Shown here one piece after another: positions 2,461 to 21,385 of a DNA stretch of 64,000 nucleotides; within the stretch, counting starts at the first letter, position 1; each line of letters starts with the position of its first letter. The notes below the pieces were generated by a model, which was not told the origin of the DNA, ran no database searches, and worked only from the letters and a program-made list of their open reading frames with translations. This DNA is from an uncultured Alphaproteobacteria bacterium (GTDB lineage Bacteria; Pseudomonadota; Alphaproteobacteria; Rhodobacterales; Rhodobacteraceae). The translations under genes were made by a program, and so were the position numbers. The DNA lies in NCBI GenBank assembly GCA_963710285.1, contig CAVPZT010000006.1:1080838-1144837 (forward strand). Direction: 5' to 3'.

Positions 2461-2464
2461 GTGG

Positions 2465-2469
2465 GTTGA
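2465..2469. repeat. left copy of the 5-bp target-site duplication GTTGA
   Basis: GTTGA lies immediately outside the left transposon terminus, and an identical GTTGA lies immediately outside the right terminus (21366..21370). Confidence 0.8.
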
Positions 2470-2500: not shown

Positions 2501-2561
2501 CTCTCCGAACCCCATATTTCATTGAGTCTGTATTTGGGATCGGCCGAAAACTCACCCTTGA

Positions 2562-2580
2562 TGTCCGGGAATTATCGCCC
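2562..2580 (+). repeat. subterminal repeat L2 (putative TniA binding site)
   Basis: TGTCCGGGAATTATCGCCC matches the reverse complement of 21298..21316 (TGTCCAGATATTATCGCCC) at 16/19. It is also related to 5830..5848. Confidence 0.6.
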
Positions 2581-2619
2581 TTTGAGATTCCGCCCCATCA
2601 GCGCACCCGGAATTGAAAC

Positions 2620-2639
2620 GGCCGCCCATCTGGGCGGCC
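2620..2639 (-). terminator. hairpin terminator downstream of tniQ
   Basis: GGCCGCCC-atct-GGGCGGCC stem-loop 25 nt after the tniQ stop, followed on the minus strand by GTTTCAATT. Confidence 0.55.
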
Positions 2640-2664
2640 GCATCGGTGTTGGTAGTCTGTAATC

Positions 2665-4503: not shown

Positions 4504-4505
4504 GA

Positions 4506-5492
4506 TCAGGTCCGCTCGAGTTGCTTGTTCTGGCGCTTCGTCCGGGCGGCCTCGAAGTCATCCGCCGCGCCATCGAGGCGGATCGAGCTCCATGAGTCGG
4601 CGACAAAGACGTTATCGTGCCATGGGCAGCCTTCCTGCATCCCCCAGGCCTCCGCGAAATGGTCGCCTTCCAGCTTGTCCGCCCCGTCGCGAAGAGCACG
4701 CTCTATGGCGTTGATTGCGGTCTCCACCGCCCGGCCGAAGCGGCCGCGGCTGCCGTGGATTAGCCGGGCAGCGAGGTCGTCGCCTACGCGGGACTCGAGG
4801 CCGGCCTCGTTCGCGTACTTCCCGATCAGCGAGTTGATAGCGCGCGCGTTCCCGGCGCTGAGGTCGCACGGGATGATCTTGGAGAAGCGGCGGTTGACCT
4901 GTGGATCGAAGCTGGTGATCTGGGACAAACGGCCGGTGCCGCTGAGAATGACGATCACGCCGGCCTCGCCGAGCATCATCGACTTGAGCATCTTCAGCAT
5001 GTCGTCGATTTCACGCGTCGAACGCGAGAGAAAAAGGTCCTGTGCCTCATCAATCCAGAGGACCGTGTAGCCCTGCTTGCAGAGCTGGATGCGGATCACC
5101 TGGAACAGTTCGAACGCCGTGACACGCGGAGGGAGTTTCGTGAAGCCGAGCCGCGCCAGGATCGCATGTCCGAGGCTCTTGAGGGTGGCAGGGTTCGGCA
5201 CCTGGACTTCCAGGTAGCGCGGTTGGCCATCGGTCGGGGCCAGGCATGCAGTCTTGGAGAGGACATGGCGGATGGCGGTCGTCTTGCCGCCCCCAGCCGC
5301 CTCGATCAGTGCGATGCCGCGCGTCTCCTGCTTGAGGGTAAAGCGGACGGGCTCAGCGATCTGGTTGCCGCCGGCATCGACCTGGAGCAGATGATCGAGA
5401 TGCTCCTTCAGCTGCCGATCGCGCTCGGTATCGATGTGAATGGAGCGCAGGTGGTCAATCTTCTGAGACACTTGGACTGGGTTCAGTTTCAT
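4506..5492 (-). CDS. tniB: TniB/TnsC-like AAA+ ATPase
   Basis: Intact 328-aa ORF with Walker A (EAAGGGKTTAI) and Walker B (VLWIDEAQDL), followed directly by tniQ. Confidence 0.9.
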   Translation of the reverse strand: MKLNPVQVSQKIDHLRSIHIDTERDRQLKEHLDHLLQVDAGGNQIAEPVRFTLKQETRGIALIEAAGGGKTTAIRHVLSKTACLAPTDGQPRYLEVQVPNPATLKSLGHAILARLGFTKLPPRVTAFELFQVIRIQLCKQGYTVLWIDEAQDLFLSRSTREIDDMLKMLKSMMLGEAGVIVILSGTGRLSQITSFDPQVNRRFSKIIPCDLSAGNARAINSLIGKYANEAGLESRVGDDLAARLIHGSRGRFGRAVETAINAIERALRDGADKLEGDHFAEAWGMQEGCPWHDNVFVADSWSSIRLDGAADDFEAARTKRQNKQLERT

Positions 5493-5689
5493 GGCGGGGA
5501 CTTCCTACCGGGGCGCTTCCGCCCGATTTTGGGGTTTGCGACAGATCCAGGATCACATCGCGAAGGCGCCTTGTGGCACATCAATCGGCGGCTTCTTGTT
5601 GGATATTGGCTGATTGCTGAAATCCGGAAGAAAAATCTTGGCTGCTCGCCGAACATTTTTGCTATGTCTACAAGCCTACTGGTCCGCAA
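5489..5689 (-). CDS. 66-codon ORF translationally coupled to tniB (accessory gene or relic of an upstream gene)
   Basis: Its TGA overlaps the tniB ATG (ATGA at 5492-5489). It contains an HTH-like stretch, LVDIAKMFGEQPR. There is no clear start context (TTG) and I do not recognise a family. Confidence 0.3.
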   Translation of the reverse strand: MRTSRLVDIAKMFGEQPRFFFRISAISQYPTRSRRLMCHKAPSRCDPGSVANPKIGRKRPGRKSPP

Positions 5690-5797
5690 GGGACGTTCCG
5701 GACCCTCGGGCTACGCGCTCAAACTCCGTCGAGTCTACGACGGCCTCCTGAAAGATGGGCCGGGAAGCGGGCATTCGCCACGAGTGCGAGCCAGTCA

Positions 5798-5855
5798 TGT
5801 CGCGACGTCCGAAAGCGACATTCACTGGATGTCGAAAGGGAATTATTTGTTGCAC
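5798..5855 (+). repeat. composite motif A at the tniB-side cargo boundary: TGTCG hairpin plus a third transposon-end-like site
   Basis: TGTCGC-gacgtccgaaa-GCGACA, then TTCACTGGA, then TGTCGAAAGGGAATTATTTGTTGCAC. The last part resembles IR-L/L2 (TGTCG.., GGGAATTAT). The overall layout recurs at 18045..18101. Confidence 0.5.
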
Positions 5856-6020
5856 TGCCGCAGGTCGGCTCCGAACCAAATCTGACGAATGCTGCACCCT
5901 GCGCGAAGTGGAGCGAGCCGCGGAAATTCGGCATTGATGGACGCAGTCACGGCCCGTTCCTTAAAATGGCCGACTTTTGCTCCGCCTCACTGGCCGGATT
6001 TTACTCCGCCGTTGACAGAT

Positions 6021-6482
6021 TCAATTGGATAAGTGGTCAGGTGCACGGTTTCGCACCGATCCGGGGATGGTACCGCCCAATCCGCCGCGTAGACGGCGCG
6101 CCAGATCGAAGAAAGCTGTCGCGTCCTGGCCGAGCGCAGCGCGGATGGTGTCGTCGACTGCCGCCCAGGCCCTACTGATCCCGGTCAGCAAGGTGCGTCC
6201 CTTTTCGGTAAGTTCGAGAACCTGTCGCCGACGCGATGCGGGATCGGTCGCACGCGTGATGTAGCCGGCGGCCAGCAGGCGGTCCGTCATGGTGCTCATG
6301 CTGGCCGAAGTGACCCCGAACGCCGAAGCGAGGTCGGTCTGAGAAACGGGGCCCGTCCGGCCCATCGCGTCGATGACGCGGGCCTGACGCGGATGGATCC
6401 CCAGCGGCGCCAATTGTCGGCGAAGCTCCGCTCTCGACAAGGTCCGCGCTGTGAAGGAACCCATGGAAGTCATGTTGGTCAA
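6021..6482 (-). CDS. MarR-family transcriptional regulator
   Basis: Intact 153-aa ORF with a winged-helix region (VSQTDLASAFGVTSASMSTMTDRLLAAGYITRATDPASRRRQVLELTEKG). It is divergent from the YHYH gene. Confidence 0.85.
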   Translation of the reverse strand: MTNMTSMGSFTARTLSRAELRRQLAPLGIHPRQARVIDAMGRTGPVSQTDLASAFGVTSASMSTMTDRLLAAGYITRATDPASRRRQVLELTEKGRTLLTGISRAWAAVDDTIRAALGQDATAFFDLARRLRGGLGGTIPGSVRNRAPDHLSN

Positions 6483-6498
6483 CTTGCATGCTAACAGT

Positions 6499-6508
6499 TA
6501 GTATACTA
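6499..6508. promoter_or_regulatory. perfect 10-bp palindrome TAGTATACTA in the marR / YHYH divergent promoter region (candidate MarR operator)
   Basis: AT-rich palindrome in the 76-bp divergent intergenic region between 6482 and 6559. Confidence 0.35.
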
Positions 6509-6558
6509 TACATTGATGAATCGCAAGCTGCCATCCATGCTCATTCGAGGGAATCACC

Positions 6559-7600
6559 ATGCTCGCAAACCCGGTCACGCAGTTCGCTGTCGCTGCTTTC
6601 CTCGCCGCCACCCTCCTGACGGCCGGCCCGGCCCTTGCGCATTCCGAGGAGGAGACCCTTGCCCGCATCGCTGCCTTCTTCGCGACCGCAAAGGTCGTGG
6701 ACGGCCCGAAGCAGGTCGATTGTACCCTGTCCGGCGGCACGGAAACGACGTGTTTTTCCATCACGGTCAGCCAAGTGCCGCAGACCTATACCCCCGGCCC
6801 ATGGTGCCCCATGAACATCTCGGACGGTCCGGAAAAGGGCGGTATCTGGTTTCTGGACGGCAAGACTGTCGACGTGGACGGCGCATTCATCGCAAATCTG
6901 GCGAAGACCTATGGCGATGCGAAATGGCAGCTTTTCGACCCCGAGACGGGCGCGGTGCGGTACACCGGCACCTTGGAAGCCTGCGAGGCCGCCGCGCGTC
7001 CCGATGTCGATCCGGCCTACCAGAATTACTGCGTGCAGTGCCTGCCGGAATACCTGCCGGCGGACGCGACGACCACCTATGTGATCCCCCTGGACGCCGG
7101 TCCCCGACGGGTGGCCGCGCTGGTGGCCGAGGCGCGCGAACCGCGGCCCTTCGGGCATCGCTTCCAATGGCGTGCGCCTTGATGGTCCCGCCCCGGTCGA
7201 TGCGATCCTCGGGGCGCACACCATCGCGCCCTTCGACGATTGCGGCGGCCATGTGAACCTCCATGAAGGCTATCACTACCACGCCGTGACGGATTGCCTC
7301 TCCGGCGCGCCGACAACGATCGCGGGGGCCGATGCCAAGGCCGTCGCGGCGCTTGGCGGCCAGATCGGCATTGCGATGGATGGCTATGCGATCTTTCCCG
7401 CATCTCATGGCCGACGGTCGCGGCGCCGGAAGGCCTTGATCGCTGCTACGGGCACGAGGCGAGAAAGCCTTGCCTACCACTATCACGTCGGTTCTGCGGG
7501 CTCGAACCAGATTCTCGGCTGTCTCGCGGCGGAAACCGGCTGCACGCTCGTGGAAGGGCAGACGGTTTGCGATGCAACCCGTCCACCGCCGCGCCCCTGA
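6559..7600 (+). pseudogene. secreted YHYH-domain protein, frame-disrupted
   Basis: Signal peptide MLANPVTQFAVAAFLAATLLTAGPALA. YHYH motifs are present (HEGYHYHAV, LAYHYHVG). The coding sequence runs through ORFs 6559..7182 and 7172..7600, with a short excursion into the 7294 frame near 7390-7470. Confidence 0.7.
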
Positions 7601-7641
7601 TGGGGACGGCATTCGTCGAAACAGACCAAGAGTATCTCTCA

Positions 7642-7967
7642 ATGAACCTACGTAACTTCAGCCTTGACCCCCGTCGCGCTGATAGGGCTGATCGGCCTGT
7701 CGCTGCCGGCTATCGGCAGAGGACGGCTCTCTGTTCGTCCCCGATCGAACTGGCCCAGTCCCAAGGCCGCCCGCAGGGTGGTCCGCAAGGCGGTCCGCCG
7801 CCGCAAGAAGCGTTCGATGCCTGCGCTGCGATCGCGGAGGGTGACGGCCTGCGCATTCAGGCTTCAGGATGACGCAAGCATCGAAGGCACCTGCCACAAA
7901 CCGCCGCAAGGTACGGCAGGGCGCTCTGGTTTGCGTGCCCAACGACGCGCCGCCGCCCAAGGGCTGA
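7642..7967 (+). pseudogene. small secreted Cys-rich protein with a GGPQGGPQGGPPP tract, frame-disrupted
   Basis: Pieced together from three frames: MNLRN.. / ..TPVALIGLIGLSLPAIG (signal peptide) / ..QGGPQGGPPPQEAFDACAAI.. / ..ACAFRLQDDASIEGTCHKPPQGTAG / ALVCVPNDAPPPKG-stop at 7965-7967. Confidence 0.35.
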
Positions 7968-8075
7968 TCCACGGGAAGCCGCGCTTTTCCAGTAGGCGAG
8001 ATCGTATCATGACTTCACCTGTCCAAACCGAACACGCTCAAAAGCGGCTTTCCTGACGCCAAAGCGCTTGGGCAG

Positions 8076-8767
8076 GTGGGTCCTGCGGTCCTGATCGTGG
8101 CGGTGCTCTGGATTGTTTCAAGTCAGGGGTATTACGCGCTTGTTTCGGCGCTCGGATTGAAGAGCGGGTATGACGGTGCGCCGGTGCTGTTCACGGCCTA
8201 CTACCTTGGCTGGACCGCGGTCGCACTTTGGCTGTTCCGTCCCTTGGTCGCCGATCGTCTGGACCGCAGCACAATTGCGCGCGAAGGGCTGGTTATGCTG
8301 CCGATTCTCGCGGGCTTTGCGCTGTTCGTGGTCTACGGCCTGCCGATGCTGCCGAGGGTTTCGGCCCTGCGCGCGCCGTCCGAGCCGCCGGAGTTCATGT
8401 TCGCCTCGGCTTGGTACTACCTGCCGAAATCGGCTGACATCCTGTTCCAGCAGACGCTCGCGGCGGGGCTCATCCTGACGGCGGCACGGGCCGGGTATCG
8501 CCTGCGCCCGATCGCCATCGGCATGGCGGTGGCGTTTGGCGGGTTCCATCTGCTTCTGGCGTTCGACGGGTTCACACCAACCTATGTCACCCGTTTCACC
8601 CTGTCCGCGACCGCGTTCGGGGCGTTGCTTCCCTATCTCTACCTGCGCCGTGCGGCGGGTTCCGCTGGGCCTATTCGCTGCATTGGGGGTTCTACGCGCT
8701 TGATGCAACGCTGACGCATTTCATCCTTGCGATCCCGCCCTGGGCGCCGAAATGGGCACCGCTCTGA
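8076..8767 (+). pseudogene. polytopic membrane protein of unknown function (weak CPBP-like FxxxH motif), one frameshift near 8655
   Basis: ORF 8076..8714 is hydrophobic throughout. The C-terminus continues in another frame (GFRWAYSLHWGFYALDATLTHFILAIPPWAPKWAPL-stop). Confidence 0.5.
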
Positions 8768-8798
8768 CCGCAGCACCGCATATTCAAGGACTATCGCC

Positions 8799-10141
8799 AT
8801 GAAGACCATTCGACTGACACTTTGGACGATCCTGCTGGGCCTGACCGGCCTGTGGGTTGCGGCCAACCTGCCGCTGCCTGACACCCTGACGCGTCATCGC
8901 AACCCGCAATCTGCTTGCTGCAGTATTCCGGTGTGCTGGCCATCGCCGCCATGAGTGTGGCGATGATCCTTGCCACCCGCTGGGCTTGGGTGGACCGTTG
9001 GCTGAACGGGCTGGATAAATCCTACCGGCTGCACAAATGGCTGGGAATTGCCGCCTTGGTGGCATCGATTGCCCATTGGGTCTTTTCCAGTGGTCCGAAA
9101 TGGGCGGTCACTCTGGGCCTGATGGAGGCCCCGACCCGGGAACCCCGCCCCGAGGCTGCGCAAGACATCGCCACGGTTCAGGATTTCTTCAACAGCCTGC
9201 GCGGCCCGGCCGAGGGGATTGGCGAATGGGCGTTTTACGCCGTGGTTGTGCTGATCGCCATCGCGCTGATCCGGCGTATTCCCTACAAGTTCTTCGCCTC
9301 GACCCATACCCTTTTGGCCGCCGCCTATCTGGCGCTGGTGTTCCACGCGACGGTTCTTCTGGAGTTTGACGCCTGGATGCAGCCGCATGGGATTGTTCTG
9401 GCGCTTTTGATGGCGGGTGGCAGCATTGCCGCCGTGCTGGCGCTGACCCGGCAGATCGGCCGTCGCCGCCGGGTGGCGGGGCGGATCGCCTCGATCCTCA
9501 ATTTTCCGTCGATGAAGGTGACCGAAGCCGAAATCACCCTGGACGCGGCATGGCCGGGGCATGATGCGGGGCAGTTTGCCTTCGTCACCTTCGACCGGAA
9601 GGAAGGCAAGCATCCCTTTACCATCGCCTCTGCCTGGAACCCGGAAACCCGGTCGATCACCGTGATCAGCAAGGGTCTGGGCGATTATACCGAACTCTTG
9701 CCGGCCAAACTGGCGGTCGGGGATGAGGTGACCGTCGAAGGGCCTTACGGGCGCTTTACCTTCGATGATGCGAAAGATCGCCAGATCTGGATCGGCGCGG
9801 GTATCGGCATCACGCCCTTCATCGCCCGGCTGAAGCATCTGGCGACCGCACCGGATGGCAAGCAGGTCGACCTGATCCATTGCGCGCCAGAGGTCGCACC
9901 GCAAGCGCGCGCCCTGCTTGACCGCGACATTGCATCGGCCAAGGCCAAACTGAGTCTGATGATCGACGGCAAGGACGGCTTTCTGACCGGGCCGCGGCTG
10001 CGGGAGATGTTTCCGGACTGGGCCACGGCCAGTGTCTGGTTCTGCGGCCCTGCCGCCTTCGGCGATGCCCTGCGCAAGGACTTGGTCGCCCACGGTCTGC
10101 GCCCCGCCGATTTCCATCAGGAACTGTTCAACATGCGATGA
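8799..10141 (+). pseudogene. ferric-reductase-like transmembrane domain fused to an FAD/NAD(P)-binding (FNR-like) domain, one frameshift near 8900
   Basis: The start (MKTIRLTLWTILLGLTGLW) is in the 8727 frame and the rest is ORF 8915..10141. It has His-bearing TM helices (YRLHKWLG, IAHWVF) followed by RxYT-like FTIAS and GIGITPF nucleotide-binding motifs. Confidence 0.7.
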
Positions 10142-10217
10142 GCGGCGGCGGCGCCACCACGCGCGGGGCATCCCCCGTGATCTGCCCCCCGAACCGCAAG
10201 ACCCCAAGGAGTCCGCT

Positions 10218-11448
10218 ATGAAACCCTATTCCCGCACGACGCAAAAAGGCCGGTCCGGTCTGCTGGCCGCGATGGTCATTTTCTGCGCACAGGCCAGCAG
10301 CGCCCAACAGATCAGCACTCCGCTGGTCGATACGATGCAGGATCAATGCTTTGATCTTGCAGGTCTGGCCATTGCCTGCCCTGCCGAGGGCGAGGCGCTT
10401 TATGGGCAGGACGCGCAGCATCCGCGCCTTGCGGCGGCCTATGCCGACAATGGCAATGGCACGGTGACAGACACCAACACCGGGTTTGTCTGGCAGAAAA
10501 CCCCGGAACCCGACCGCCTGCAATTCGCCGATGCCATCGGCTATTGCGCGGCGCTGGAGCTGGGCGGTCTGTCCAACTGGCGCGTTCCCACGATCAAGGA
10601 GCTATATTCGCTGGCCGATTTCCGCGGGGAGCTTTTGAAACCCGAAGAGGGCAGCCCGACGCCCTATCTCGACACCACCGCGTTTGACTTTGACTACCCC
10701 GATGCCCAAATGATCTTTGCCGGCCAGTATTGGAGCAGCACGCTTTACGTCAAAGGCCCGATCATGAACGGCCAGAACCAGGGCGCCTTCGGGTTCAACT
10801 TTGCCGATGGCCATATCAAGGCCTACGGCACCGGGCTTGATTTCTTCACTGGCGAAGCCGCCGCCAGCAGCGGGCTTGCCAACGGTCCGGCTGATGGCAA
10901 GGCACCCGGCAACTATGTGCGCTGCGTCAGCGGCGAAGAGGGGGTCTACGGCGTCAACGACTTTGTCGACAACGCCGATGGCACGGTGACCGACGCGGCC
11001 ACGGGCCGGATGTGGCAGCAGGCCGATGACGGCACGCGCCGCGAATGGGCCGAGGCCCTTGCCTATTGCGAGGCGCTGGATCTGGGCGGGCATCAGGACT
11101 GGTATCTGCCGAACTCCAAGGAACTGCAAAGCATCGTCGATTACGACAAGACGGATTTCCCGGCGATTGACACCAGCCGTCTTCGGCATCACCCAGGATT
11201 CCGAAACGCTCGACTACTGGACCAGCACGACCTTCGGCGACATCAAGTCCCACGCCAATGTCATCGTCTTCGGCAAGGCGCTGAGCAAGGCAGGCGATCA
11301 GACCGAGTATACCGACTGGCACGGGGCCGGTGCACAGCGGTCGTCGATCAAGACGCTGACCGGGCAGGCACTGACCGACGAAGATCTCTGTTCGATCAAT
11401 GCCTGCGACGTGGACCGGCCAGACAATCTGGTGCGCTGCGTGCGTTAG
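10218..11448 (+). pseudogene. secreted DUF1566 (Lcl C-terminal domain)-type protein, one frameshift near 11170
   Basis: Signal peptide MKPYSRTTQKGRSGLLAAMVIFCAQASSAQQ. Repeated DUF1566 signatures are present (NWRVPTIKELYSL, DWYLPNSKELQSIV). The C-terminus continues in ORF 11026..11448. Confidence 0.65.
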
Positions 11449-11533
11449 AAGCTACTTGGCACAGTGAGTGACCTCAGCCATGTGCGTCGAGGTCAGTCGA
11501 CAGGCCCGTGTCCCGGAAAGAGGAACCCAGCCC

Positions 11534-11743
11534 ATGACCATCAAGAGCATAAACGGCTGCATCGGTTGCGAGGAATGCGTGAAGTCCTGCCCCTGCGACG
11601 TGATCCGCATGGAGACGGGCAAGGCGGTGATCACCTATCCCGCCGATTGCCAGATCTGCCACCTGTGCCGGATGTATTGCCCGGTCGATGCCATCGAGAT
11701 GTCGCCCGAGAAATCCATTCCCGTCATCGTGCCCTGGGGGTAG
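11534..11743 (+). CDS. 2x[4Fe-4S] ferredoxin (69 aa)
   Basis: Two CxxCxxCxxxCP motifs (CIGCEECVKSCP, CQICHLCRMYCP). The next gene starts 3 nt after its stop. Confidence 0.85.
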   Translation: MTIKSINGCIGCEECVKSCPCDVIRMETGKAVITYPADCQICHLCRMYCPVDAIEMSPEKSIPVIVPWG

Positions 11744-11745
11744 CC

Positions 11746-12427
11746 ATGAAACTCACCGCCAAATCCGCCACCATCCTCACCGCAATCGCCGTCTTCGTCG
11801 GCCTGCCGCTGATGTTCTACGCCCTGGGCGACGCCCCGCGCCGGACGGTGCTGAAAGAGGTCATCTCCATCGCCACGCTGCTGGCCTTCGCCGCGATGCT
11901 CGGCCAGTTCTTCATGGCGCGCAGCAACACCTGGCTTCTGAGCGTCTTCAAGCCGCCGCAGATCCAGAAGGTCCACAAGTATATCGCCTATACGGCGGTC
12001 GGCGGTGATCCTGCTGCATCCCGGTTCTGATCGTGCTGCCGCGCGCGCTCGAGGGCGGTGTGCGCCCTTGGGACGCCTTCGTCACCATGATCACCGACCT
12101 TCGACAGCCTCGGTATCCTGCTGGGCCTTATCGCTTGGGCGTTGCTTCTGGTGCTGGCCGTGACCGCGTTCTTCCGCAAGCCGCTTATCAAGCGCCTCGC
12201 GACCCATTACCGCGGCTGGCGCTATTTTCATGGCGGGCTGGCAGTCAGCTTCACCGTCTTGGCCCTCTGGCATTCCATCACCCTCGGCCGCCACACCGAC
12301 CTCGTCGATGTCGGCACTGCTCGTCATGCTGGCGCTGATCGGTTTCGCCATGTTGGCGAAGCTCTACTGGGGCGGGCCGCCGAAGACGCCCCGACCGAAA
12401 CCCGTTTCCGAAGGAGCCGCGTCATGA
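11746..12427 (+). pseudogene. YedZ/MsrQ-like ferric-reductase-type membrane anchor (b-heme), several frameshifts
   Basis: Hydrophobic protein spread over the frames of ORFs 11464..12030, 12142..12552 and 12230..12427. His residues sit in TM helices (KVHKYIAY, YFHGGLAV, LALWHSI). Its stop overlaps the next start (ATGA at 12424). Confidence 0.55.
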
Positions 12428-14176
12428 CCGCGCCAGCCGACACCACCGCCCCGACCCGCCGCGACGTTCCTCGCGCTTTCCGGTGCTGCCGCCGGGCTGG
12501 CCTCGCTCGGGATGCAGGCGTGGGCGCAGAACGCCGTCGAGATCGACCCTGATGCCATCACCAACACCGACCATGCCACCGACGTCCTGGTGATCGGCGG
12601 CGGCATGGCCGGGCTTTTCGCCGCGGTTAAGGCGCATGACGCGGGCGCTGCCACCATGATCGTCTCGAAGGGGCGATTGGGCTCTTCAGGCCTGACGCCC
12701 TTCGGCAAGGGATTCTTCGTCTTCGACCCAGCGACCGAGACCGGCACCATCGACGATTTCGTCGATGCGGTCTCGCGCTCGGCGCTCGGTACCAACAACC
12801 CGGTCTATACCCGGCAACTGGCCGAGCATTCGATCGATCGCGCAGCCGAATTGCGCGACTGGGGGTATTTCGATCAGACGCTGGCCAACCGTCCCTTCAT
12901 GCGGCCCATCGAAGAACGCGGGATCCCCCTGCTCGAACGGGTGGTCATCACGCATCTCATCAAGGAGGACGGTAGGATCGCGGGGGCGGCGGGCTTCCGG
13001 CTCGACGCCGAGGAGACCGTCACGATCCGCGCCAAATCGGTGATCCTCTGCACCGGTGCGGGCGGCTTCAAGCCAAACGGTTTCCCCCTGGGCGACCTGA
13101 CCCATGACGGCACGGTGATGGCCTACCAGATCGGCGCCAAGGTCACCGGCAAGGAATGGAACGACGGCCATTCCACCCGCAGCGTCAACCCTGCCGCCTG
13201 CTACGACAACTGGGGCGACATGTTCGAGCGGATCCCCTCGACCAACGGCGTCGAGGTGCATCACGATCTGGGCGTGGACATCAACTACCGCGCCTATGTG
13301 CTGGGAAACCCGGTCGAAGGCGGGCCGGGTGCTGCGCAACCGACGGAAGAGATTGCGGGCGGGCCTTTCGTGCCAGAGGAATTTCAGGGGAGAGGTCAAC
13401 CGCCTGGAGCGGCGGATGGAGAAGGCGGGGCACCCGGCGGCCGACCTCCGGGCAAGGGTGGTGCCCCCGGCGGGCCGCCCCCCGGCTTCGCGGCCAGTGC
13501 CAATGTCGGCGGGGCCTCTGCGGGCATGGCGATACACAAGTCCGAAGGGCTGGTGCCGGTGGACGGACACTGCGCCTCCAACATCGCCGGGCTTTACGCG
13601 GCGGGCGATGCACTCGGCAGCCATATGGCGGGCGGGATCTACACCCAGGTCGGCTCGTCGCTGGCCGGTTCCGCCGTGCAGGGCGCCATTGCGGGCGAGG
13701 CGGCAGCGGAATATGCCGCGGGCGTGGACGTGCCGACCATCTCCGACGCGCGCCTGACCGAGATCACCGACGAGATCCTCGCCCCCCTGCGGCGTGAGGC
13801 GGGCTATGGTCCGGCCTGGGTCACCCAGACACTGCAAGGGATCATGATCCCGAACTTCGTCCTCTACATCAAGAAAGCCGCGATGATGCAGGCAGCGCTC
13901 GCCTATATCGAGGAGTTGCGCGACCACCATACGCCGATGCTGCGCGCGGCCAACTTGCACGAACTGCGGCTCGCATTCGAGACCCGCAACATGATCCTTT
14001 CGGCCGAGATGAAACTGCGCGCCTCATTGATGCGCACTGAAAGCCGATGCAGCCACTACCGGCTGGATTATCCGGACTTGGATGACACGAATTGGCGCGC
14101 CTGGATCAACATCTATCGCGGCGAGGACGGAACGATGCAGCTTGAAAAACAGCCCTTCGATAGCTGGCCCGGATAG
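12424..14176 (+). pseudogene. Tat-exported FAD-binding flavoprotein (fumarate reductase/succinate dehydrogenase/AprA-like), frameshift inside the signal peptide
   Basis: MTAPADTTAPTRRD then, after a 1-nt shift, FLALSGAAAGLASLG (twin-arginine signal). ORF 12512..14176 carries DVLVIGGGMAG, GLYAAGD and the C-terminal RTESRCSHYRLDYPDLDD motif. Confidence 0.75.
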
Positions 14177-14831
14177 ATCGGCGGTAGGGGTGTGGCCCTT
14201 CGGAGCGATGCAGCGCGGTGAGCGATGCTGTCCCCGGGCGGTGTGCGCCCTCCATCCTTTGCACGGAATTCTGAGTATGCGCGCGGGGCGATGTGCGATG
14301 AGCAGATGGCGATTGCATTCTCCGCCATAACGCAGCCGCCAAAGCTGCACTCCCCTACGGCACCCATCGAGGATCGGGCGGACTCTCGGTTGACCTGAGC
14401 CTGTCGGCGGACGCACGGGCTCAAAGCATGCTAAAGTGGTCGCGACGCGCCGAGACCTGCCACATGAGTTGCTCACTCCGACGGCCGCTTCGTCCCGCGA
14501 CGCCGACATCACTATTTTCGAGACCGGCGCCTTGCCATCTTCGAAAGCGCTTCGTCGTGCCGCGTGGCGGCGAGTCTCTCCGGCCAACGATGGTACAAAC
14601 CGAAACGCGTTTTGGATTGGCGCCAAGTCCAAAGCGACCCAACATCTCGCATCTCCGCGCCTGAGTTTTCACGATTCATCCATGGCCACGAGGCAGATCC
14701 TGAACGAAAGTGATCCGTAGGTAACAGCGCGGTCTATCATGTACTTGACGCTCGCCCGCATCACATCGTTGCCACATTCGAGAATTCTACTATGACGCGA
14801 CTGCAACGGATTGGTTCGGCGGAGAAAACCT

Positions 14832-16379
14832 ATGCTGCGTTTCACCATATCGCTTGTCGCAGGCGCCTTCTTCTCCACCGCCTCGGCAATAGCGCAGACA
14901 CCGGTCGAACTGGCACGGCATGCGATCGATACCGGCGACTTCGCGGCGCTTGAAACCCTACTCGCGGATCAGACCGAATCGGCGCACGAGACACGAGACT
15001 TATCTGCGCTGCGCGGCCTTTTTGGAACGTTGTTTGAAACGGCGAACTCCGCGCGTCTGGAGCGAGAGGAGGCATGGCTGGCGGCGTATCCCAACTCGGC
15101 CTACGCGGCGTCGGCGCTCGGCTGGTCACACATGCATCTGGCTGTTCTGGCGCGCGGGACAGCGTCAACGCGGTTCACCTCCGGCGAGGCGTTTGCTGCG
15201 CATCGCGAAGAATTGTCGGTGTCGCTGGCGATGACGGATCGGGCCCTCAAGGGCGATCCCGATTTCGTACCGGCGCTCGACCTTGCAATCGTGCTTGCCA
15301 TGTATGGTGGCGGCCAGTCCGCCGTTTCGTCCCTCGTTGAACGAACACTGTCGGTCGCACCAGACCCGCATGCCCTCGTCCTCGGGCTGACGGCGCTCTC
15401 TCCGCGCTGGGGCGGGAGTGTCGGGCAGCAGTTCGCATTGTGCGACACCGCAAAGGATAAGCTGCCAGGCTTCGATGACGACATCTGCCTGATCTATGTC
15501 ACCTTCTCGGAAGGGCTGGACGGTGAGATGCGTCAGAAGGCGCTCGCCGCGCTCGAAAAACGCGACGAGTCCTTGCTCGACTTCGCGCGCGCGGACGCCT
15601 ATCGCCACGAATGGCGCGGCCGACCCGGGGCCGCGGAGAAGTCGATGCAATTCCTCATGCAGAGGATCGGGCCGGGTGCGGGTTTCGACGCCCTCGAAAG
15701 CGATCTTCGCTTGATCGCCCATACCTTCAGGGATCCCTTCTTTGAGATCGATGCCGAGGATGCCATAGTGGCCGCGCTGAGGGAGACGCTGCGCGACAGC
15801 CCCGAAGATTATCGCGTTCTGGGACGGCTTCTTGCCGGCATCTTCGACAATAGCCGCCCGGACGTTGCACTGGAACAGGCGGACGAGGCGCGCGCGCTGT
15901 GGCGCGCGATGCTTGTCCGGGGGCGCTACAATCCCGAGGTCTGGGCGTCCGGCGAACGCCTGGAGCGGTATCTCGGGAGCTGGACCAAACCAGCGCTGAC
16001 AGGTCCCTATGCCGTCAACGAGATCTACTACAGCAATCACGGTTCCAACCCGCTCAGACAGTATGTCATTGACCTTTTCCGGTTGCACGAAATGGCGCGC
16101 CGGCCGGAAACGCTTCCTGCAGGCACCACGCTCGACGACCTCGGCGACGATGTCCTCCTTTGCCCGATGTTCCGCGCGCAGAGGCTTTTCGCCGCTATTT
16201 GCGAGCGTTCGTCGCGGGAGCGCGGATGCAGTTCGGCGGGGGCGGACGCCAACGTGCCCGACGAGGTCCGCCGCCTGATGTCCAGGACCGAAGCCTGCCG
16301 TTGGGAGCGGACTGCACCGGTCGCGGAACTCAGGTTCCAGCCGGTTTCGGTTTCACACTTCCTCGGGGATGACAAATGA
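14832..16379 (+). CDS. secreted protein of unknown function (DUF4034-like helical repeat), paralog 1
   Basis: Intact ORF with signal peptide MLRFTISLVAGAFFSTASAIAQ. It resembles the next gene along its whole length, including the C-terminal motif CPM.R..RL....C....C......C. Confidence 0.6.
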   Translation: MLRFTISLVAGAFFSTASAIAQTPVELARHAIDTGDFAALETLLADQTESAHETRDLSALRGLFGTLFETANSARLEREEAWLAAYPNSAYAASALGWSHMHLAVLARGTASTRFTSGEAFAAHREELSVSLAMTDRALKGDPDFVPALDLAIVLAMYGGGQSAVSSLVERTLSVAPDPHALVLGLTALSPRWGGSVGQQFALCDTAKDKLPGFDDDICLIYVTFSEGLDGEMRQKALAALEKRDESLLDFARADAYRHEWRGRPGAAEKSMQFLMQRIGPGAGFDALESDLRLIAHTFRDPFFEIDAEDAIVAALRETLRDSPEDYRVLGRLLAGIFDNSRPDVALEQADEARALWRAMLVRGRYNPEVWASGERLERYLGSWTKPALTGPYAVNEIYYSNHGSNPLRQYVIDLFRLHEMARRPETLPAGTTLDDLGDDVLLCPMFRAQRLFAAICERSSRERGCSSAGADANVPDEVRRLMSRTEACRWERTAPVAELRFQPVSVSHFLGDDK

Positions 16380-17908
16380 TCCGGATTGCACTGACGCTGA
16401 TATTGCTCATGTTGGCGCACCCGTCGCTGGCGCAGGATCCCGTCGATCAAGTGCGCGCGCTTCTCGACGCCGGTGATGTCGACGGGCTTGAGCAAACCCT
16501 TCGCGCCCTGCACGATGCGCAGCGCGCGGGCGGGAGCGCGGCCGCACTTCGCGCGGTCAACGCGCGGCTCTTCGAGACCACCCACCCGGAGCGAGGTGAA
16601 GTGATCCGGCGCTGGCAGGAGAGTCGTCCGGATTCGGTCTACGCCGCCACGGCCGCGGCGTGGCGGGCGATCAAACTGTTCGAAGCGGTCGGAAACCCCG
16701 ATGACCGCTATCAGGTCCCTGTTTCCCCCGCGGGACTGGCGGCCTATGACAAGGCGAAGAGCGAAGCCCAAACGGCGATGGAGCGCGCGCTCGACCGCGC
16801 GGGCGACTATCCCCCGGCGCGCGATGCCTGGTTCCGGCTGCGTGCGGTCTCTCCGAAACGCGACGGGGTTGGCGAGATGGCCGAGGCCTTGATTTCCAGC
16901 GCGCCAGAGGCTGAGAGCATCCGTGTCATTCTCGCCGCGACGCAATATTGGTCTCCGCATCCCGGGCAGGACGTCCTCGGCGCCTGCCTCACCTACGCGC
17001 CCCTGACACGGGAATATGACGTTGACCGCTGCGTCATCGAGGCGGCCATTGCCTACGATGTCGGAAGCGACCTGCATGACAAGGCCGCCGAGGCGCTAAT
17101 AGGGATGGATGATCCCGCGCTCGACCGGGCACATCTTCAACAGGCGGTATGGGCGAGCGGCCCGGACAGCTGGGATCTCGACCGGATCAAAACCTGGTAT
17201 CGCCGCATGCCGCTTTCGACTGCCGATCTGAACTGGTACGTGACCACCGGTCGCAGGATCGCGTCGATCGGCAAGCGTCCGGAAATCCTCGTCGCCGGAT
17301 CGAACCGGGCGCTCGACGAAATCGCGGTTCGGATACCTGACAATCCTCTGGACCCGTCACTGCGGGCCTTGGAAGCGGCGTTGCGTCTCGAACGATATCT
17401 GCGCGACCATGATGCGGAGGACCTCGCGCTCGCCCGGGAAGCCTGGGAGGCTGGCGTGGTGTACGGCGGCACCTCCGCAGACTATTGGCAAGCGGGCAGC
17501 CTCTTGGCCACTGTCGACAGGGCGCAATGGGACGTCGCGGACGCATTCGTGTTCCACGAGAACGCGATCGCGTATTCCGGGCAGAGCGTCGCCAATCTCG
17601 TGTTCGCCTTTTACTGGATGGATGAAGCGCGCATTGCCGCCGAGATGGCCGACGGCACGTCGGGAGCGGGCGAAGCACGGGAACGGCTCCAATGTCCGAT
17701 GCTCCGCGTGGCCCGGCTTGCCGACGCGCTTTGCAAGAAGGACCCGTCTGCGGCCATGTTCTGCGATCCCGCGCAGCCCCCCTTCGCGCACGGGCCCGAG
17801 GTGCTCGCGTCAGGGCGCGAAACCTGCTCGGAAGTCGCCAACGCACGGCTGTCGTCCATCAAGTTCGAACCCGTTCCCTACGCAGACGTGTCGTTGCCTT
17901 GGAAATAG
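16376..17908 (+). CDS. secreted protein of unknown function (DUF4034-like), paralog 2
   Basis: Intact ORF overlapping the previous stop (ATGA), with signal peptide MIRIALTLILLMLAHPSLAQ. It has the same N-terminal pattern (..DAGD.D.LE..L..) and the same C-terminal Cys pattern as paralog 1. Confidence 0.6.
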   Translation: MIRIALTLILLMLAHPSLAQDPVDQVRALLDAGDVDGLEQTLRALHDAQRAGGSAAALRAVNARLFETTHPERGEVIRRWQESRPDSVYAATAAAWRAIKLFEAVGNPDDRYQVPVSPAGLAAYDKAKSEAQTAMERALDRAGDYPPARDAWFRLRAVSPKRDGVGEMAEALISSAPEAESIRVILAATQYWSPHPGQDVLGACLTYAPLTREYDVDRCVIEAAIAYDVGSDLHDKAAEALIGMDDPALDRAHLQQAVWASGPDSWDLDRIKTWYRRMPLSTADLNWYVTTGRRIASIGKRPEILVAGSNRALDEIAVRIPDNPLDPSLRALEAALRLERYLRDHDAEDLALAREAWEAGVVYGGTSADYWQAGSLLATVDRAQWDVADAFVFHENAIAYSGQSVANLVFAFYWMDEARIAAEMADGTSGAGEARERLQCPMLRVARLADALCKKDPSAAMFCDPAQPPFAHGPEVLASGRETCSEVANARLSSIKFEPVPYADVSLPWK

Positions 17909-18044
17909 GGTCAATCGATGAGGGAAGGGGTGGAGGGATGGAACTGCAAAGCTGGTCGGACGCGCTCTCGCTGAAGGTACGATCTATCGACGTTCCTTTC
18001 GCCTTCCGCCCTCTGGTCGGTCGGGCCGACAGTTGTAGGGTTGC

Positions 18045-18101
18045 TGTCGGCGAAGCTTCTTTACGGCCGACATTAGTGGACAGTCAGTGTCGAGCCGACG
18101 G
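18045..18101 (+). repeat. composite motif B at the tniA-side cargo boundary
   Basis: TGTCGGC-gaagcttctttacg-GCCGACA, then TTAGTGGA, then cagtcag-TGTCGAGCCGACGG. It has the same layout and orientation as 5798..5855 (shared CGACATT..TGGA followed by TGTCGA). Confidence 0.5.
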
Positions 18102-18409
18102 CATCCGAACTTGTCAACATCCGCGCTGTAAGGACATTCCCCTCTCAACACGGCAAAGAATCTATTTCCACCCGAGTTGCTGTTTAACGCGGTCGCTAAC
18201 AGCCGAGGCTGTGTGGAAGCCCATGAAGAGACTGACACACCGGCACAACTCTGATGATGTGACCGTCCTCCTTTGTGGATCGTCGCAGACCCACCTTGGC
18301 ACATCGATGCCGTCGGGGGGCGGTCACATCATCAAAGCCGACAAACACCTATCGGCATTTCAGAAATTCTAATGCGATGCCTCGGGAACGCGTGCCGCGG
18401 AATTGAAAA

Positions 18410-18433
18410 CGCCGGCAGATGAATCTGCCGGCG
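18410..18433 (-). terminator. hairpin terminator downstream of tniA
   Basis: CGCCGGCAGA-tgaa-TCTGCCGGCG, a 10-bp stem about 30 nt after the tniA stop, followed on the minus strand by TTTTCAATT. Confidence 0.65.
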
Positions 18434-18462
18434 TGTCCCTCCTGGGGTTAATCGATGAAGCG

Positions 18463-20565
18463 CTACCCGCGGAATGCCCACCCGCTGCCGTGCTCCTCCG
18501 GCCCGCCGCTGCCCGGTCCCGTTTGCTCGACGTCGGAGGCCTCATCGCGAATGTCGAGGACTGAACCCTGAGGAAGGATGACCCTCCCGGGCCCATTCTC
18601 AGAAAGCGCCAGTTTCGGGGACGTCGGCACGATCGCGAACGATGCGAACAGGGATTCCTCGAGCTTTTGCAGGTATTCGACCGAATAGGGCTTGTCGATC
18701 AGTTGGAACTGCAGCGAACGGTGCTGGTTCAGAGCCTTGATCGCCGCCATCGCTTCGCGCACAACGTCTTCGTTCCAGGCGGCCTGCTTCGGCGAGCGGG
18801 AGCGAAGATCGCGCCTGGTGGCGATCCAGACCTGTGCGTGCACTCCGTCGAGCCCTTCCTCGCTCGCACGCACTTCCTGCCACGACCCGTCGATCTGCAC
18901 TTCGATCGCGCCGATGTCCGCCTCATCCCAGCGGATGCTGAAGTGGCGTGGGCCGCCGCTGACAATGCTGTGCGCCAGCGCCTCGTTCTGATGGCGAACC
19001 CCCAGGACCGTTATCCCCTCCTTCGTTCCCTTCATCGTTCGGGAGATCCCGAACGCGAGCCGTTTCCGGCGTTTGTCGGGCGCTGCTTTCAGGGGGTAGT
19101 TGCCCTCGCGGTGATCCCGCTCCCACTGCTCGCGCGGCGTCCGGCCACCCAGCCCCCGGCGGGGGGTATTGTGGTAGATGTCGACGATCCAGCGCACCAG
19201 AATGCGGCAGATGTCTTCCGCATCGAGGCAGGCACGCTTCTCGGCCGGATGGTCGCCCTTTTCGACGACATCCGAGAAGGTTCGCCCGGACAGAAGCGGT
19301 AGCAGATTGCTTCCGATGGTCCCGAAGATCCGCTCCCCGGTTCCGCGCATGGTTGCCGCACCGGCGATGGTGCGCAAATGCGTCATGCCGAGGTCGCAGC
19401 AAGTGTCGGTGAAGGCCTTGGCTTTGAACGCACTTCCGTTGTCCGTGGCAATCAGTTCCGGCGTGCCGGCCTCGCTCCAGCGGCACTTCGCACCGGTCGC
19501 ATCGGAGATCTCGCCCTTGTCGCTCACCACCATTCTCAGACAGTTGGCGGCGGAACTTTCCCTTGGGTTTTTCGTCAGCATGAAGCCGAGGATGATCTTG
19601 GTTCGGCAGTCGATCGCGAGCGTGGCCCACCAGCGCGCCTTCTTGTCGTCCAGCCCGAGGCCCTGAAGCTCCTCGTCGGTGAAGAGTTTCAGCAGCCCAG
19701 CCTTTGCCATGACTGTCATTAGGTCGATCTTCGTCTCATCCATCTCGACCCGCTCGAGCGGGCGCGAGACCTCGATGCCCTTGTTGACGGGCCGATGATC
19801 GTTGATCGTCTTCTCGATCCCGTACCGCGCGAGGGTGACCGAGAACTTGTCCAGACCGTCGATATACTGGCGAATGGCGTGCCGCCCCGGCACCCTGAGG
19901 ACAGGAAGCCCGGCCGCTTCGCGACGCTTGTTCTCATCGTGGAACGCGTCCTTGACTGCCTTCTCGGTCAGCAGCTTCGTCATTCGGTTCAGTGTGAGAT
20001 AGTTTTCGTTCACGGTCTTCGCCAGCAGGGCGTTGGTTTTGATGTCATAACCGTTGTCCCTGCGCCCCCGCAGGGAAGTACGGGGCGCCAGACCGATCTT
20101 TCCGTCTCTCTCGAAGTCGCGCACGTAGCCCAGCAGGGTCCTCGGATGGACGCCAGAGACCGCCGCCACCAGCTTCCCACCGTGCCTTTTGGTTGCGGCG
20201 GCATCAGAACCGGGATCCCGCAGCATGTCCTGCTGATCGACCCTGTCCTTCATGTATGCGACTGCACCCCCGGCGATCGATGCCTGCTTGGCCGAGATCG
20301 AACTCTCCGTCCTATGGACGAGCCCATTGTTGAATTGGTCGAGGAAAGACTGGACGAGAGCGAACCTCAGGTCGACGACTTCCTTGTCCTCCGGACGCAG
20401 GGCGGCCAGACAGTCGTCGCCGATCGGCTTGGACTCGCGGCGGATCACCGTGTCCGGACTGAAGAAACTGACCTTGTGCTTGATCCGACCGCTCGACGAG
20501 AGTTCGTTGATGATCTGGAACGGGAAGGTCTGTGCCAGCCCCTTGCCGTCCACAGGGACGAGCAC
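18463..20565 (-). CDS. tniA: TniA/TnsB-like DDE (retroviral-integrase-fold, Mu-type) transposase, 700 aa
   Basis: Intact ORF with a GTG start. The catalytic core pattern is present (VEMDETKIDL ... ELIATDNGSAFKA ... GTGERIFGT), followed by a Mu-transposase-like C-terminal domain. Confidence 0.9.
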   Translation of the reverse strand: MLVPVDGKGLAQTFPFQIINELSSSGRIKHKVSFFSPDTVIRRESKPIGDDCLAALRPEDKEVVDLRFALVQSFLDQFNNGLVHRTESSISAKQASIAGGAVAYMKDRVDQQDMLRDPGSDAAATKRHGGKLVAAVSGVHPRTLLGYVRDFERDGKIGLAPRTSLRGRRDNGYDIKTNALLAKTVNENYLTLNRMTKLLTEKAVKDAFHDENKRREAAGLPVLRVPGRHAIRQYIDGLDKFSVTLARYGIEKTINDHRPVNKGIEVSRPLERVEMDETKIDLMTVMAKAGLLKLFTDEELQGLGLDDKKARWWATLAIDCRTKIILGFMLTKNPRESSAANCLRMVVSDKGEISDATGAKCRWSEAGTPELIATDNGSAFKAKAFTDTCCDLGMTHLRTIAGAATMRGTGERIFGTIGSNLLPLLSGRTFSDVVEKGDHPAEKRACLDAEDICRILVRWIVDIYHNTPRRGLGGRTPREQWERDHREGNYPLKAAPDKRRKRLAFGISRTMKGTKEGITVLGVRHQNEALAHSIVSGGPRHFSIRWDEADIGAIEVQIDGSWQEVRASEEGLDGVHAQVWIATRRDLRSRSPKQAAWNEDVVREAMAAIKALNQHRSLQFQLIDKPYSVEYLQKLEESLFASFAIVPTSPKLALSENGPGRVILPQGSVLDIRDEASDVEQTGPGSGGPEEHGSGWAFRG

Positions 20566-20721
20566 AAAGGATTCGGCCGTTCGGGCGAGAAGGCGGAACG
20601 CGACTGCGTCGATCGTGACGCGGTCGTATCGGTAACGCCATCAACTGGTATGGCGCCGCCCTCTCCGATCTGCATCGCGAAGTTTCCGGCGGCAGGGCGG
20701 CGGCACGCCGTTGACATCCAA

Positions 20722-20747
20722 GGGGGGCGCAGGTGACTGCGCCCCCC
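20722..20747. repeat. perfect 11-bp GC stem-loop in the transposon right arm
   Basis: GGGGGGCGCAG-gtga-CTGCGCCCCCC, about 155 bp upstream of the tniA start, with no U-tract on either strand. Confidence 0.6.
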
Positions 20748-21297
20748 CCTGACGGCTCCCGGTTCCCGAAGCCAAAAGGCGGCAAGGTATGATCGCCTTC
20801 AGCCCCTCGACGCGCGCGCGATGATCAGGACAGATTGGGAGTGTCTGAGGACGCGCTTTTACACCCTGATCCACAATCGCACCGAAAGAGCGGCCACTGA
20901 CCAGTTCCGCTGGCTCCACCCGGAGTCCCAGAACCCCGACGGCCGCGCCGCCGCGAAGCAGGGAAAAATCGGCTTCGCCGCCGCCTACGAGGATGGCAGG
21001 GCCGCCCGATCCTCCCCCCGATCACATCGCGGTCGTCTGCGAGGTTTCGATCGCCTTTGGCGAAGCCGACACCGAACGCATCGCCTGCCCTCACCTCCGC
21101 AGCCGCGCCGGGACCTTTGCCCCTTCGAAACCCGCACCGGCCTCGGCATGGTCGAGGTGACCGAAGGATATCGCTTTTCGCTTCGACCGTCGCAAAATCA
21201 GAAGTCGGAGGTTTGCATTTCACCTGCCACCGCAATAAATCCTGCATGTATGACAGCGAATTTTTCTGCTCAGCAATTTCAATAGTTTAGCAGCGGA

Positions 21298-21316
21298 GGG
21301 CGATAATATCTGGACA
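21298..21316 (-). repeat. subterminal repeat R2 (putative TniA binding site)
   Basis: Its reverse complement TGTCCAGATATTATCGCCC matches L2 (2562..2580) at 16/19. Confidence 0.6.
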
Positions 21317-21334
21317 AAAGGGTGCCAAAAACCC

Positions 21335-21365
21335 CCGAAAAGGGCGTTTTCTCCCAGACTCCTCA
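21335..21365 (-). repeat. right terminal inverted repeat (IR-R)
   Basis: See IR-L: 22/31 identity, and the terminus ends in ...CA. Confidence 0.75.
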
Positions 21366-21370
21366 GTTGA
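21366..21370. repeat. right copy of the 5-bp target-site duplication GTTGA
   Basis: Identical to 2465..2469 and immediately abutting IR-R. Confidence 0.8.
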
Positions 21371-21385
21371 AAAGCGGCGCTCACC

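Follow-up and report, generated by a model that had tools for sequence, protein, structure and literature searches.

The 64-kb stretch of Rhodobacteraceae DNA studied here (part of contig CAVPZT010000006.1; hereafter the window) contains one Tn7-like transposon of 18.9 kb, at positions 2470–21365, in which the stop codon of the gene for a TnsB-like transposase (tniA) lies 12,970 bp from the start of the gene for a TnsC-like ATPase (tniB), with about 12 cargo open reading frames (ORFs) between the two. We consider it about an even bet (probability roughly 0.5) that this cargo represents a secondary build-up of foreign DNA, associated with insertion sequences (ISs), in a tniA–tniB spacer that was already uncoupled, and that the element separately lost tnsA together with the 5' end of tniA. 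A first-pass annotation of the window had rightly recognized a tni-type element with terminal TGTCG-like ends, for which we found the Pfam families TniQ, TniB/AAA_22 and rve, as well as the presence of cargo genes between tniA and tniB. It had overlooked the remnants of IS21- and IS110-family elements at the junctions, the missing tnsA, the truncation of tniA, a conserved terminator and a conserved upstream motif that belong to tniA and tniB, respectively, and the class II ribonucleotide reductase (RNR) gene at which the element is inserted.

Cargo and IS remnants between tniA and tniB

The family was surveyed in 80 genomic loci together with annotated plasmids. The usual gene order was found to be a gene for a protein of ~225–260 amino acids (TnsA) overlapping the start of tniA, followed by tniA, tniB and tniQ. 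About 55 of the ~60 contiguous relatives had a gap of −11 to +40 bp between tniA and tniB; in the two closest relatives of the window element, L001 and L003, it was 297 and 913 bp. The 13-kb separation pointed out in the first-pass annotation is thus unlike the family norm. No relative had the same-orientation split seen in the window, and a literature search, incomplete in coverage, found no description of a split between tnsB and tnsC.

Two short sequences in the window are shared with L001 and L003 (see Table 1 for the coordinates of these and all other features). A terminator core of the form CCGGCAG-N6-7-CTGCCGG is conserved 28–45 nt after tniA in all three, and a motif, TTTCCGGATT...CCAAT, is found 110–150 nt upstream of tniB, where it probably acts as the promoter or operator of that gene. 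Because the terminator after tniA and the motif before tniB are common to the three elements, the cargo appears to fill a spacer that was already uncoupled; in the ancestor, the terminator on one side of it and the probable promoter on the other would have stood next to each other.

The cargo is pieced together from at least two modules and IS scars. Homologues of the first module, of marR and redox genes, are found in ordinary chromosomal operons of L093 and L094. The gene pair of the second module occurs in unrelated contexts (L087 5344–8680, L088 8390–11531 and L089 5036–7969); in BLAST, window positions 14762–18033 showed 76% nucleotide identity to the transposon-free L087 locus of an Albidovulum metagenome-assembled genome, and a MAFFT alignment with L087 extended to ~18087, at lower identity and across a 12-nt gap, with conservation of the C-terminus of the small ORF that ends the module. 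The pair of ~520- and 510-aa proteins, found in four Rhodobacterales, had no match in Pfam, NCBIfam or PADLOC and could constitute a small module of mobile or accessory character; in two loci it is followed by a membrane ORF of ~44 aa. PADLOC gave no defence match for ten cargo proteins, blastn against plasmids no match for 5493–5965 or 14177–14810, and tblastx and blastn of the junctions and right-end-proximal regions against all fetched loci noise only, with the exception of an IS21 match to L080.

That match belongs to one of two IS remnants, which lie at either edge of the cargo. At the tniB side, the istB-proximal terminal inverted repeat of an IS21-family element matches, at 93% identity over 59 nt, the istB-adjacent end of an intact IS21 on the Sulfitobacter plasmid NZ_CP025809.1 and has matches in 159 plasmid records; the same end interrupts tniA in L080, and in the window its terminus stands 3 nt from the marR stop codon. 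At the tniA side, the left end of an IS110-family element is 95–97% identical over 80–86 nt to sequences in L091 and L092 that lie directly upstream of the IS110 transposase ATG, with matches in 172 plasmid records. This remnant explains an inverted repeat with 23-nt arms (18249–18271 and 18315–18337) that it forms together with positions 18249–18259, and a search for the IS110 right end in 18088–18248 found no similarity. No intact istA, istB or IS110 transposase gene is present in the window, and both sites are remnants. ISs are found in about 30% of Tn7-like transposons (PMC8649781), and the ends seen here resemble such nested ISs in matching intact copies at 93–97% identity; they differ in being scars of only 56–80 nt, located at both cargo edges between core transposition genes. 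As a separate observation, an IS110-family element abuts an IS21-family element, at the istA end of the latter, in both L091 (1457–3086) and L086 (3279–6235), which hints that this IS110 group may target IS21 ends.

In the course of events that we favour, a Tn7-like element would have inserted, right end first, 20 nt downstream of the class II RNR gene, and would have belonged to a sublineage in which tniA, with its own terminator, and tniB, with its own upstream control motif, were separate transcription units with a spacer of variable length. Foreign DNA, that is the marR–redox operon and the gene pair of the second module, copied from ordinary Rhodobacterales chromosomal loci, would have built up in this spacer by way of ordinary secondary IS events, involving an IS21-family element at the tniB edge and an IS110-family one at the tniA edge, with both elements then being cut down by deletion to their end scars. 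A separate deletion or rearrangement would have taken tnsA along with ~17 codons from the start of tniA. The ISs would have had a part in bringing the cargo rather than arriving later, presumably in the order given.

Several observations weigh against this account. The IS remnants could be later visitors and not agents of capture, and the IS21 remnant turns its outer terminus, not its interior, towards the cargo, so that a simple composite-transposon model does not fit. With ~60% identity to the closest relatives the ancestral spacer is not reconstructable, and ~550 nt of junction DNA (5656–5962, 18088–18259 and 18340–18408) have no match. The intact ORFs of tniB, tniQ and most of tniA imply either recent decay or genes that are still in use, and the account gives no reason why TGTCGA...TCCGAAC should be shared by the left end and both junction motifs described below.

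Element ends, the probable attachment site at the RNR gene and the loss of tnsA

An end profile (nhmmer) was made from six ends of relatives, with the window excluded, and run on the 64-kb window. Its top three sites were 2470–2501 (E = 0.0016), 21364–21336 (E = 0.0084) and a second left-end site at 2563–2584 (E = 0.033); as a relatives-only profile ranked both termini on top, the element boundaries are independently supported. Repeats of the AACGCCCTTTTC / ATTATCGCCCT type are common to the left and right end, which gives the element the inverted ends with several transposase-site repeats and the 5-bp target duplication of Tn7-like transposons. We dropped the duplication as proof of a single insertion, since repeated insertion at a fixed site would give the same duplication at every junction. 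An Rfam scan of positions 2000–22000 at E ≤ 1 gave no match.

The right end lies 20 nt downstream of the class II RNR gene of the window. An RNR homologue with 80–85% amino acid identity adjoins the element in 12 relatives, with the right terminus always 18–23 nt past the stop codon, so that the window and these 12 relatives show the insertion in one orientation, at a set distance from a conserved gene, that typifies Tn7-like elements; the loci named with an RNR-adjacent right end, besides the window, are L007, L020, L022, L043, L052, L061, L066, L072, L074, L077, L082, L084 and L086. This suggests that the 3' end of the class II RNR gene serves as the attachment site of a large Rhodobacterales family of Tn7-like elements. 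The RNR genes nrdB in Acinetobacter baumannii and nrdD in archaea and Firmicutes are attachment sites of the Tn7 family (10.1101/2025.07.27.667033), and the elements described there likewise have a TniQ/TnsD selector and are parked at an RNR gene; the difference is that the RNR used here is the B12-dependent class II enzyme of Rhodobacterales, which our literature search, with its incomplete coverage, did not find named as a Tn7-family site.

A further observation at this site was made with tblastn of RNR, which returned two pieces with overlapping query ranges in L052 13747–16254 (537–605), L022 9044–11593 (588–596) and L074 4–2523 (578–605). The element-proximal C-terminal piece is the more diverged one (65–76% versus 82–83%), and a block of 92% identity between L052 and L061 reaches ~550 nt into the RNR gene. 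The split pieces could mean that the 3' end bearing the attachment site was partly duplicated or replaced.

TniA of the window is 59–60% identical to TniA of L001 and L003, starting from residue 18 of those. Its best homologues, at 59–62% identity, are all from Rhodobacterales, and the proteins to which it is 59–62% identical have PF00665 (rve) and PF09299 (Mu-transpos_C), as expected of TnsB-type transposases; its own Pfam rve score of 28.6 bits is under the gathering score of 32.6. The assignments of TniB to TnsC/TniB and of TniQ to TniQ/TnsD are supported by PF05621 (45.4 bits) and PF06527 (63.8 bits), whose scores exceed the respective cut-offs.

A TnsA-like protein gave no tblastn match anywhere in the window, although tnsA adjoins tniA in all relatives for which enough upstream sequence is available. 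The identity of the relatives' gene as TnsA was supported by a 28-member profile that matched Tn7 TnsA (PDB 1F1Z) with E = 3.7e-6 in an alignment covering the D...K part of the catalytic motif, and by Pfam TnsA-like_N, which matched 13 of the 28 members. Because these relatives all have TnsA, its absence from the window is a loss and not the state of the family. Membership among Tn7-like elements holds despite the missing TnsA, a feature that is not universal there, and the window copy is a TnsA-less derivative. The damage extends into tniA, where no ATG, GTG or TTG is found between the in-frame TGA at 20641–20643 and the GTG at 20565, and where that GTG has no ribosome-binding site. The adjacent non-coding stretch at 20644–21290 had no similarity to relatives or IS elements, and plasmid blastn of 20600–21300 gave a trivial match only. 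As tnsA and the first ~17 codons of tniA are missing, the window copy is probably no longer autonomous; it is probably defective and would have lost its mobility.

The element resembles Tn7 in having a DDE transposase of the TnsB type, an AAA+ TnsC-like protein and a TniQ/TnsD-like selector, in the coupling (seen in the relatives) of the TnsA endonuclease gene to the transposase gene, in the several internal transposase-site repeats at its ends and the 5-bp duplication, and in inserting in one orientation, with its right end nearest to a conserved housekeeping gene and at a fixed ~20 nt past the stop codon of that gene. It differs from Tn7, which uses attTn7 downstream of glmS, in using the class II RNR gene, in having no TnsE, and in that cargo in this family lies between the right end and tnsA, not beyond the selector gene; the window copy differs further through its lack of tnsA and the 13 kb between its TnsB-like and TnsC-like genes. 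The tniA/tniB/tniQ naming, the Pfam families and, for the window copy, the lack of tnsA are shared with Tn5053/Tn402 (tniABQR), but the element has no tniR resolvase or res site and its target is the 3' end of a gene, not a res site.

Table 1. Coordinates of features in the window (strand + or −; a point where no strand applies).
Feature	Position	Strand	Basis or remark
FGGY sugar kinase, flanking gene	1081–2460	+	Converges with the RNR gene across the element
Target-site duplication, left copy GTTGA	2465–2469	.	Direct sequence reading; same as 21366–21370
Left end	2470–2600	+	Terminus TGTCGAATCC...; TniA-site-like repeats AACGCCCTTTTC at 2487 and ATTATCGCCCT at 2571
tniQ, predicted TnsD-like target selector, 612 aa	2665–4503	−	Pfam TniQ, 63.8 bits; full-length 55–59% identity to TniQ of L001 and L003
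tniB, TnsC-like AAA+ protein, 328 aa	4506–5492	−	Pfam TniB and AAA_22; full-length 61% identity to L001 TniB
Conserved motif TTTCCGGATT...CCAAT	5602–5636	−	110–144 nt upstream of tniB; aligned with L001 and L003
Motif A: hairpin TGTCGC-N11-GCGACA, then TGTCGA...TCCGAAC	5798–5876	+	Sequence present
IS21-family terminal inverted repeat remnant, istB-proximal end	5963–6018	−	Terminus TGTCAACGGCGGAG... faces marR; IS body missing
marR-family regulator, first cargo gene	6021–6482	−	Pfam MarR_2, MarR
Cargo module 1: unknown small proteins, ferric-reductase-like flavoprotein, Lcl_C protein, SdhA/FrdA-like flavoprotein	6559–14176	+	Pfam, NCBIfam
Cargo module 2: unknown 522-aa and 510-aa proteins, small-ORF remnant	14762–18087	+	Last ~45 nt hold the B hairpin
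Motif B: hairpin TGTCGGC-N14-GCCGACA, then TGTCGA...TCCGAAC	18045–18110	+	Sequence present
IS110-family left-end remnant	18260–18339	+	80 nt between IS terminus and transposase ATG; transposase gene absent
Intrinsic terminator, 11-bp stem and T run	18409–18434	−	Terminator scan; 28 nt past tniA stop
tniA, TnsB-like DDE transposase	18463–20640	−	700-aa ORF from GTG 20565; homology upstream to ~20628, no start codon there
In-frame TGA	20641–20643	−	Five codons upstream of conserved DRVTID; marks loss of tniA 5' end and tnsA
Non-coding stretch, ~650 bp	20644–21290	.	No convincing ORF; sits where relatives carry tnsA and cargo
Right end	21291–21365	−	Minus-strand terminus TGAGGAGTCTGG...; three CGCCCT/CACCCTT repeats; aligned with RNR-proximal ends of 12 relatives
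Target-site duplication, right copy GTTGA	21366–21370	.	Direct sequence reading
Class II (B12-dependent) RNR, nrdJ-type	21386–23734	−	Pfam; 3' end is the probable attachment site

Hairpin motifs at the two junctions

The first-pass annotation had described two similar TGTCG-hairpin motifs, A on the tniB side and B on the tniA side, as boundary signals of the cargo. The motif strings are present where it had placed them. If a circular cargo had been captured by site-specific recombination at a CGACATT..TGGA or TGTCGA core, by a recombinase of the host or the element, A and B would be hybrid attachment sites, and this would agree with the directly repeated composite of hairpin, TT..TGGA and TGTCGA that is found in similar form near the two cargo edges and with the number of TGTCG hairpins in the window, which was 3 against a shuffle expectation of 0.18 for a pattern that was itself derived from the data. 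The empirical rate of such hairpins was 0.86 per 64 kb in 1.65 Mb of related DNA, with none at a tniA/tniB junction. Local alignment of A with B was near background (empirical p = 0.08, and 0.14, 0.09, 0.02 and 0.18 with four other scorings), as were the alignments of A and of B with the left end (p = 0.19 each); this is essentially the background-level similarity that the first-pass annotation had itself named as refuting its proposal. The B hairpin, at 18045–18076, is the 3' end of the small ORF common to the window and L087 (WSVGPTVVGLLSAKLLYGRH versus WSVGPTVAVILIVKLFYNRL, each followed by the stop codon) and was thus coding sequence inherited with its cargo module, inside the homology to a transposon-free locus whose own copy has no hairpin. 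Neither the relatives' junctions nor other copies of the cargo modules have the A/B motif. Motif A was matched by no plasmid of the collection, and in the fetched loci the one match was that of the IS21 remnant to L080. With no recombinase gene in or beside the cargo, no recombinase or resolvase among the element ORFs, and a cargo that is a mosaic of modules and IS scars, we regard such capture as very improbable. The TGTCG hairpin motifs are incidental and not a boundary signal.

A third hairpin of the window, at 32102–32134, has a near-identical counterpart in L084 at 33357, inside an annotated dnaE coding sequence, and such hairpins thus arise in ordinary coding DNA. Motif A as the other end of a miniature IS21 was ruled out by its lack of similarity to the IS21 left end, and LexA- or MarR-type operators as the source of the TCCGAAC and TGTCG words were rejected, by inspection only, because the spacing is unfit.

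More can be said for the first-pass suggestion of nested or tandem elements, although we still think it unlikely. Two or three related elements would have inserted at the same RNR site, and reciprocal deletions would have left tniB–tniQ of one and tniA of another, with A and B as relic end junctions. That arrays form is seen from right-end-like sequences of a neighbour that lie 2–10 bp from the left ends of L003 (~16190–16270), L004 (~6600–6670) and L006 (downstream of 14964), and repeated insertion at a fixed site would be expected to give the same 5-bp duplication at each junction. In the window the composite TGTCGA...TCCGAAC is moreover confined to the left end, A and B, each time on the same strand; as TGTCGA-N8-38-TCCGAAC it was observed 3 times against 0.09 expected by shuffling, again for a pattern derived from the data, and in the fetched loci (about 1.6 Mb) it occurred 7 times, none at an end or spacer. 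The similarity does not go further than the two words, since the DNA between them is alike at chance level (p = 0.52) and none was found beyond them. The end profile, which recovered the true ends and the second left-end site, gave no plus-strand match at 5830 or 18088, the nearest match having E>30 on the wrong strand, and the CGCCCTTT-type repeats of the true ends are absent from A and B, so that neither motif combines a profile match with a transposase-site repeat ~15–25 nt from a terminus, as an internal transposon end would. The homology of the cargo to a transposon-free locus up to ~18087 leaves no room for a right end to the left of B, and at least three precise deletions would be needed.

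Split relatives and what they suggest for the family

On the TniA tree, tniA and tniB are separated in at least five places: in a clade of six members with tnsA–tniA pointing to the right end beside the RNR gene, in a second clade around L022, in the L005/L007 pair, in L084, whose replicon has no tniB at all, and among L042, L081 and the window. An inversion of tnsA–tniA relative to tniB–tniQ, seen in L052, L061, L066, L077, L082, L007, L022, L084 and L086, has arisen in at least four clades. Two diversified clades carry the tnsA–tniA block inverted with respect to the right end, and as much as 19 kb of cargo parts the two gene pairs. One of the inverted elements, L086 on Paracoccus seriniphilus p420573 (NZ_CP067132.1, about 260.8–287.1 kb; about 8868–35130 in the locus), is complete: from the left end it runs through tniQ–tniB, 19 kb of cargo, tnsA–tniA on the strand opposite to tniQ–tniB, and two small genes to the right end; its ends match each other and it has the duplication ACAAG on both sides. 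The element block of L052 and L061 is 92% identical compared with 71–78% for the host flanks, and L005 and L007 share 98% identity that ends exactly at the right terminus, where their flanks begin to differ. L042 matches the contiguous L030 at 94–98% identity up to a point ~50 nt short of the tniA stop and has, at 12028–16969, a large serine recombinase and two ParB/RepB-like genes in place of tniB–tniQ; this serine recombinase element at the 3' end of tniA and the IS21 inside tniA of L080 are mobile elements at the same junction. Separation at the tniA–tniB junction is thus recurrent and has several causes, and the inverted form seems compatible with spread.

These relatives bear on the main competitor of IS-associated build-up, an internal rearrangement in which two inversions, or a translocation of tnsA–tniA, would have brought cargo from the slot between right end and tnsA into the space separating tniA from tniB, with the last breakpoint destroying tnsA and the 5' end of tniA. 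Canonical RNR-adjacent relatives carry 5–9 kb of cargo between right end and tnsA, compared with a slot of just ~0.7 kb in the window, the breakpoint lies exactly at the tnsA/tniA boundary, and tnsA–tniA has been inverted in the clades mentioned, including in the complete L086 with its intact duplication. At least two events would be needed, no inverted repeats were found at the breakpoints, and the IS remnants would be left unexplained; the terminator is still with tniA and the control motif with tniB, which plain insertion explains equally well. We judge rearrangement possible, but clearly less probable than secondary build-up of foreign DNA.

The natural split architecture suggested in the first-pass annotation is supported by relatives only as an inverted tnsA–tniA, and the window copy looks defective. 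For its split to be fixed and functional, tniA and tniB–tniQ would have to be separate units around a cargo bay in an element still mobile without TnsA or with help in trans. The intact tniB, tniQ and both ends, 95% of tniA, and the apparent spread of the split relatives (L052/L061 and L005/L007, as above) would fit, whereas the lack of the tnsA found beside tniA in relatives with enough upstream sequence, a tniA that has an in-frame stop and neither a homologue-aligned start codon nor a ribosome-binding site before GTG 20565, the want of any relative split in the same orientation, and the absence of a resolvase to support a replicative route make it rather doubtful, more so than a tandem array.

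Two side observations concern the relatives. A conserved protein of ~117 aa without assigned function (L001 8188–8983, L052 12480–12788, L061 9035–9343, L066 12472–12774 and L077 16385–16723) has its gene ahead of tnsA in canonical elements and after tniA in three of the four inverted ones listed here; in L077 the gene lies ~6.6 kb past tniA. This small gene may have an accessory or regulatory role in the family. In L007, at 8480–8570 just upstream of tnsA–tniA, GTCG(T)CGCCCCCCTCGCGGGGGCGTGGATCGAAAC repeats with ~30-nt spacers resemble the end of a cargo CRISPR array.

The window copy is an ordinary IS-remodelled, decaying element for which these findings change little, and the proposed capture signal is not worth pursuing; the plasticity of the family and its RNR site are mildly interesting. 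The B12-dependent RNR gene is a further, apparently undescribed attachment site and may matter to the study or engineering of Tn7-type systems, as may the location of the family's cargo between right end and tnsA. Pipelines that require TnsB beside another core gene (PMC8649781) could miss or mis-delimit copies like that of the window, as no other core gene is next to its tniA. It may matter in the same way that the elements seem to stay mobile with transposase genes kilobases away from the ATPase and selector genes, and even inverted relative to them. We tentatively propose, at somewhat short of even odds, that the Rhodobacterales Tn7-like family at the 3' end of the class II RNR gene tolerates and spreads with a split machinery, and that the tniA–tniB junction would be a second cargo bay and rearrangement hot spot, of which the window may present a third, same-orientation form.

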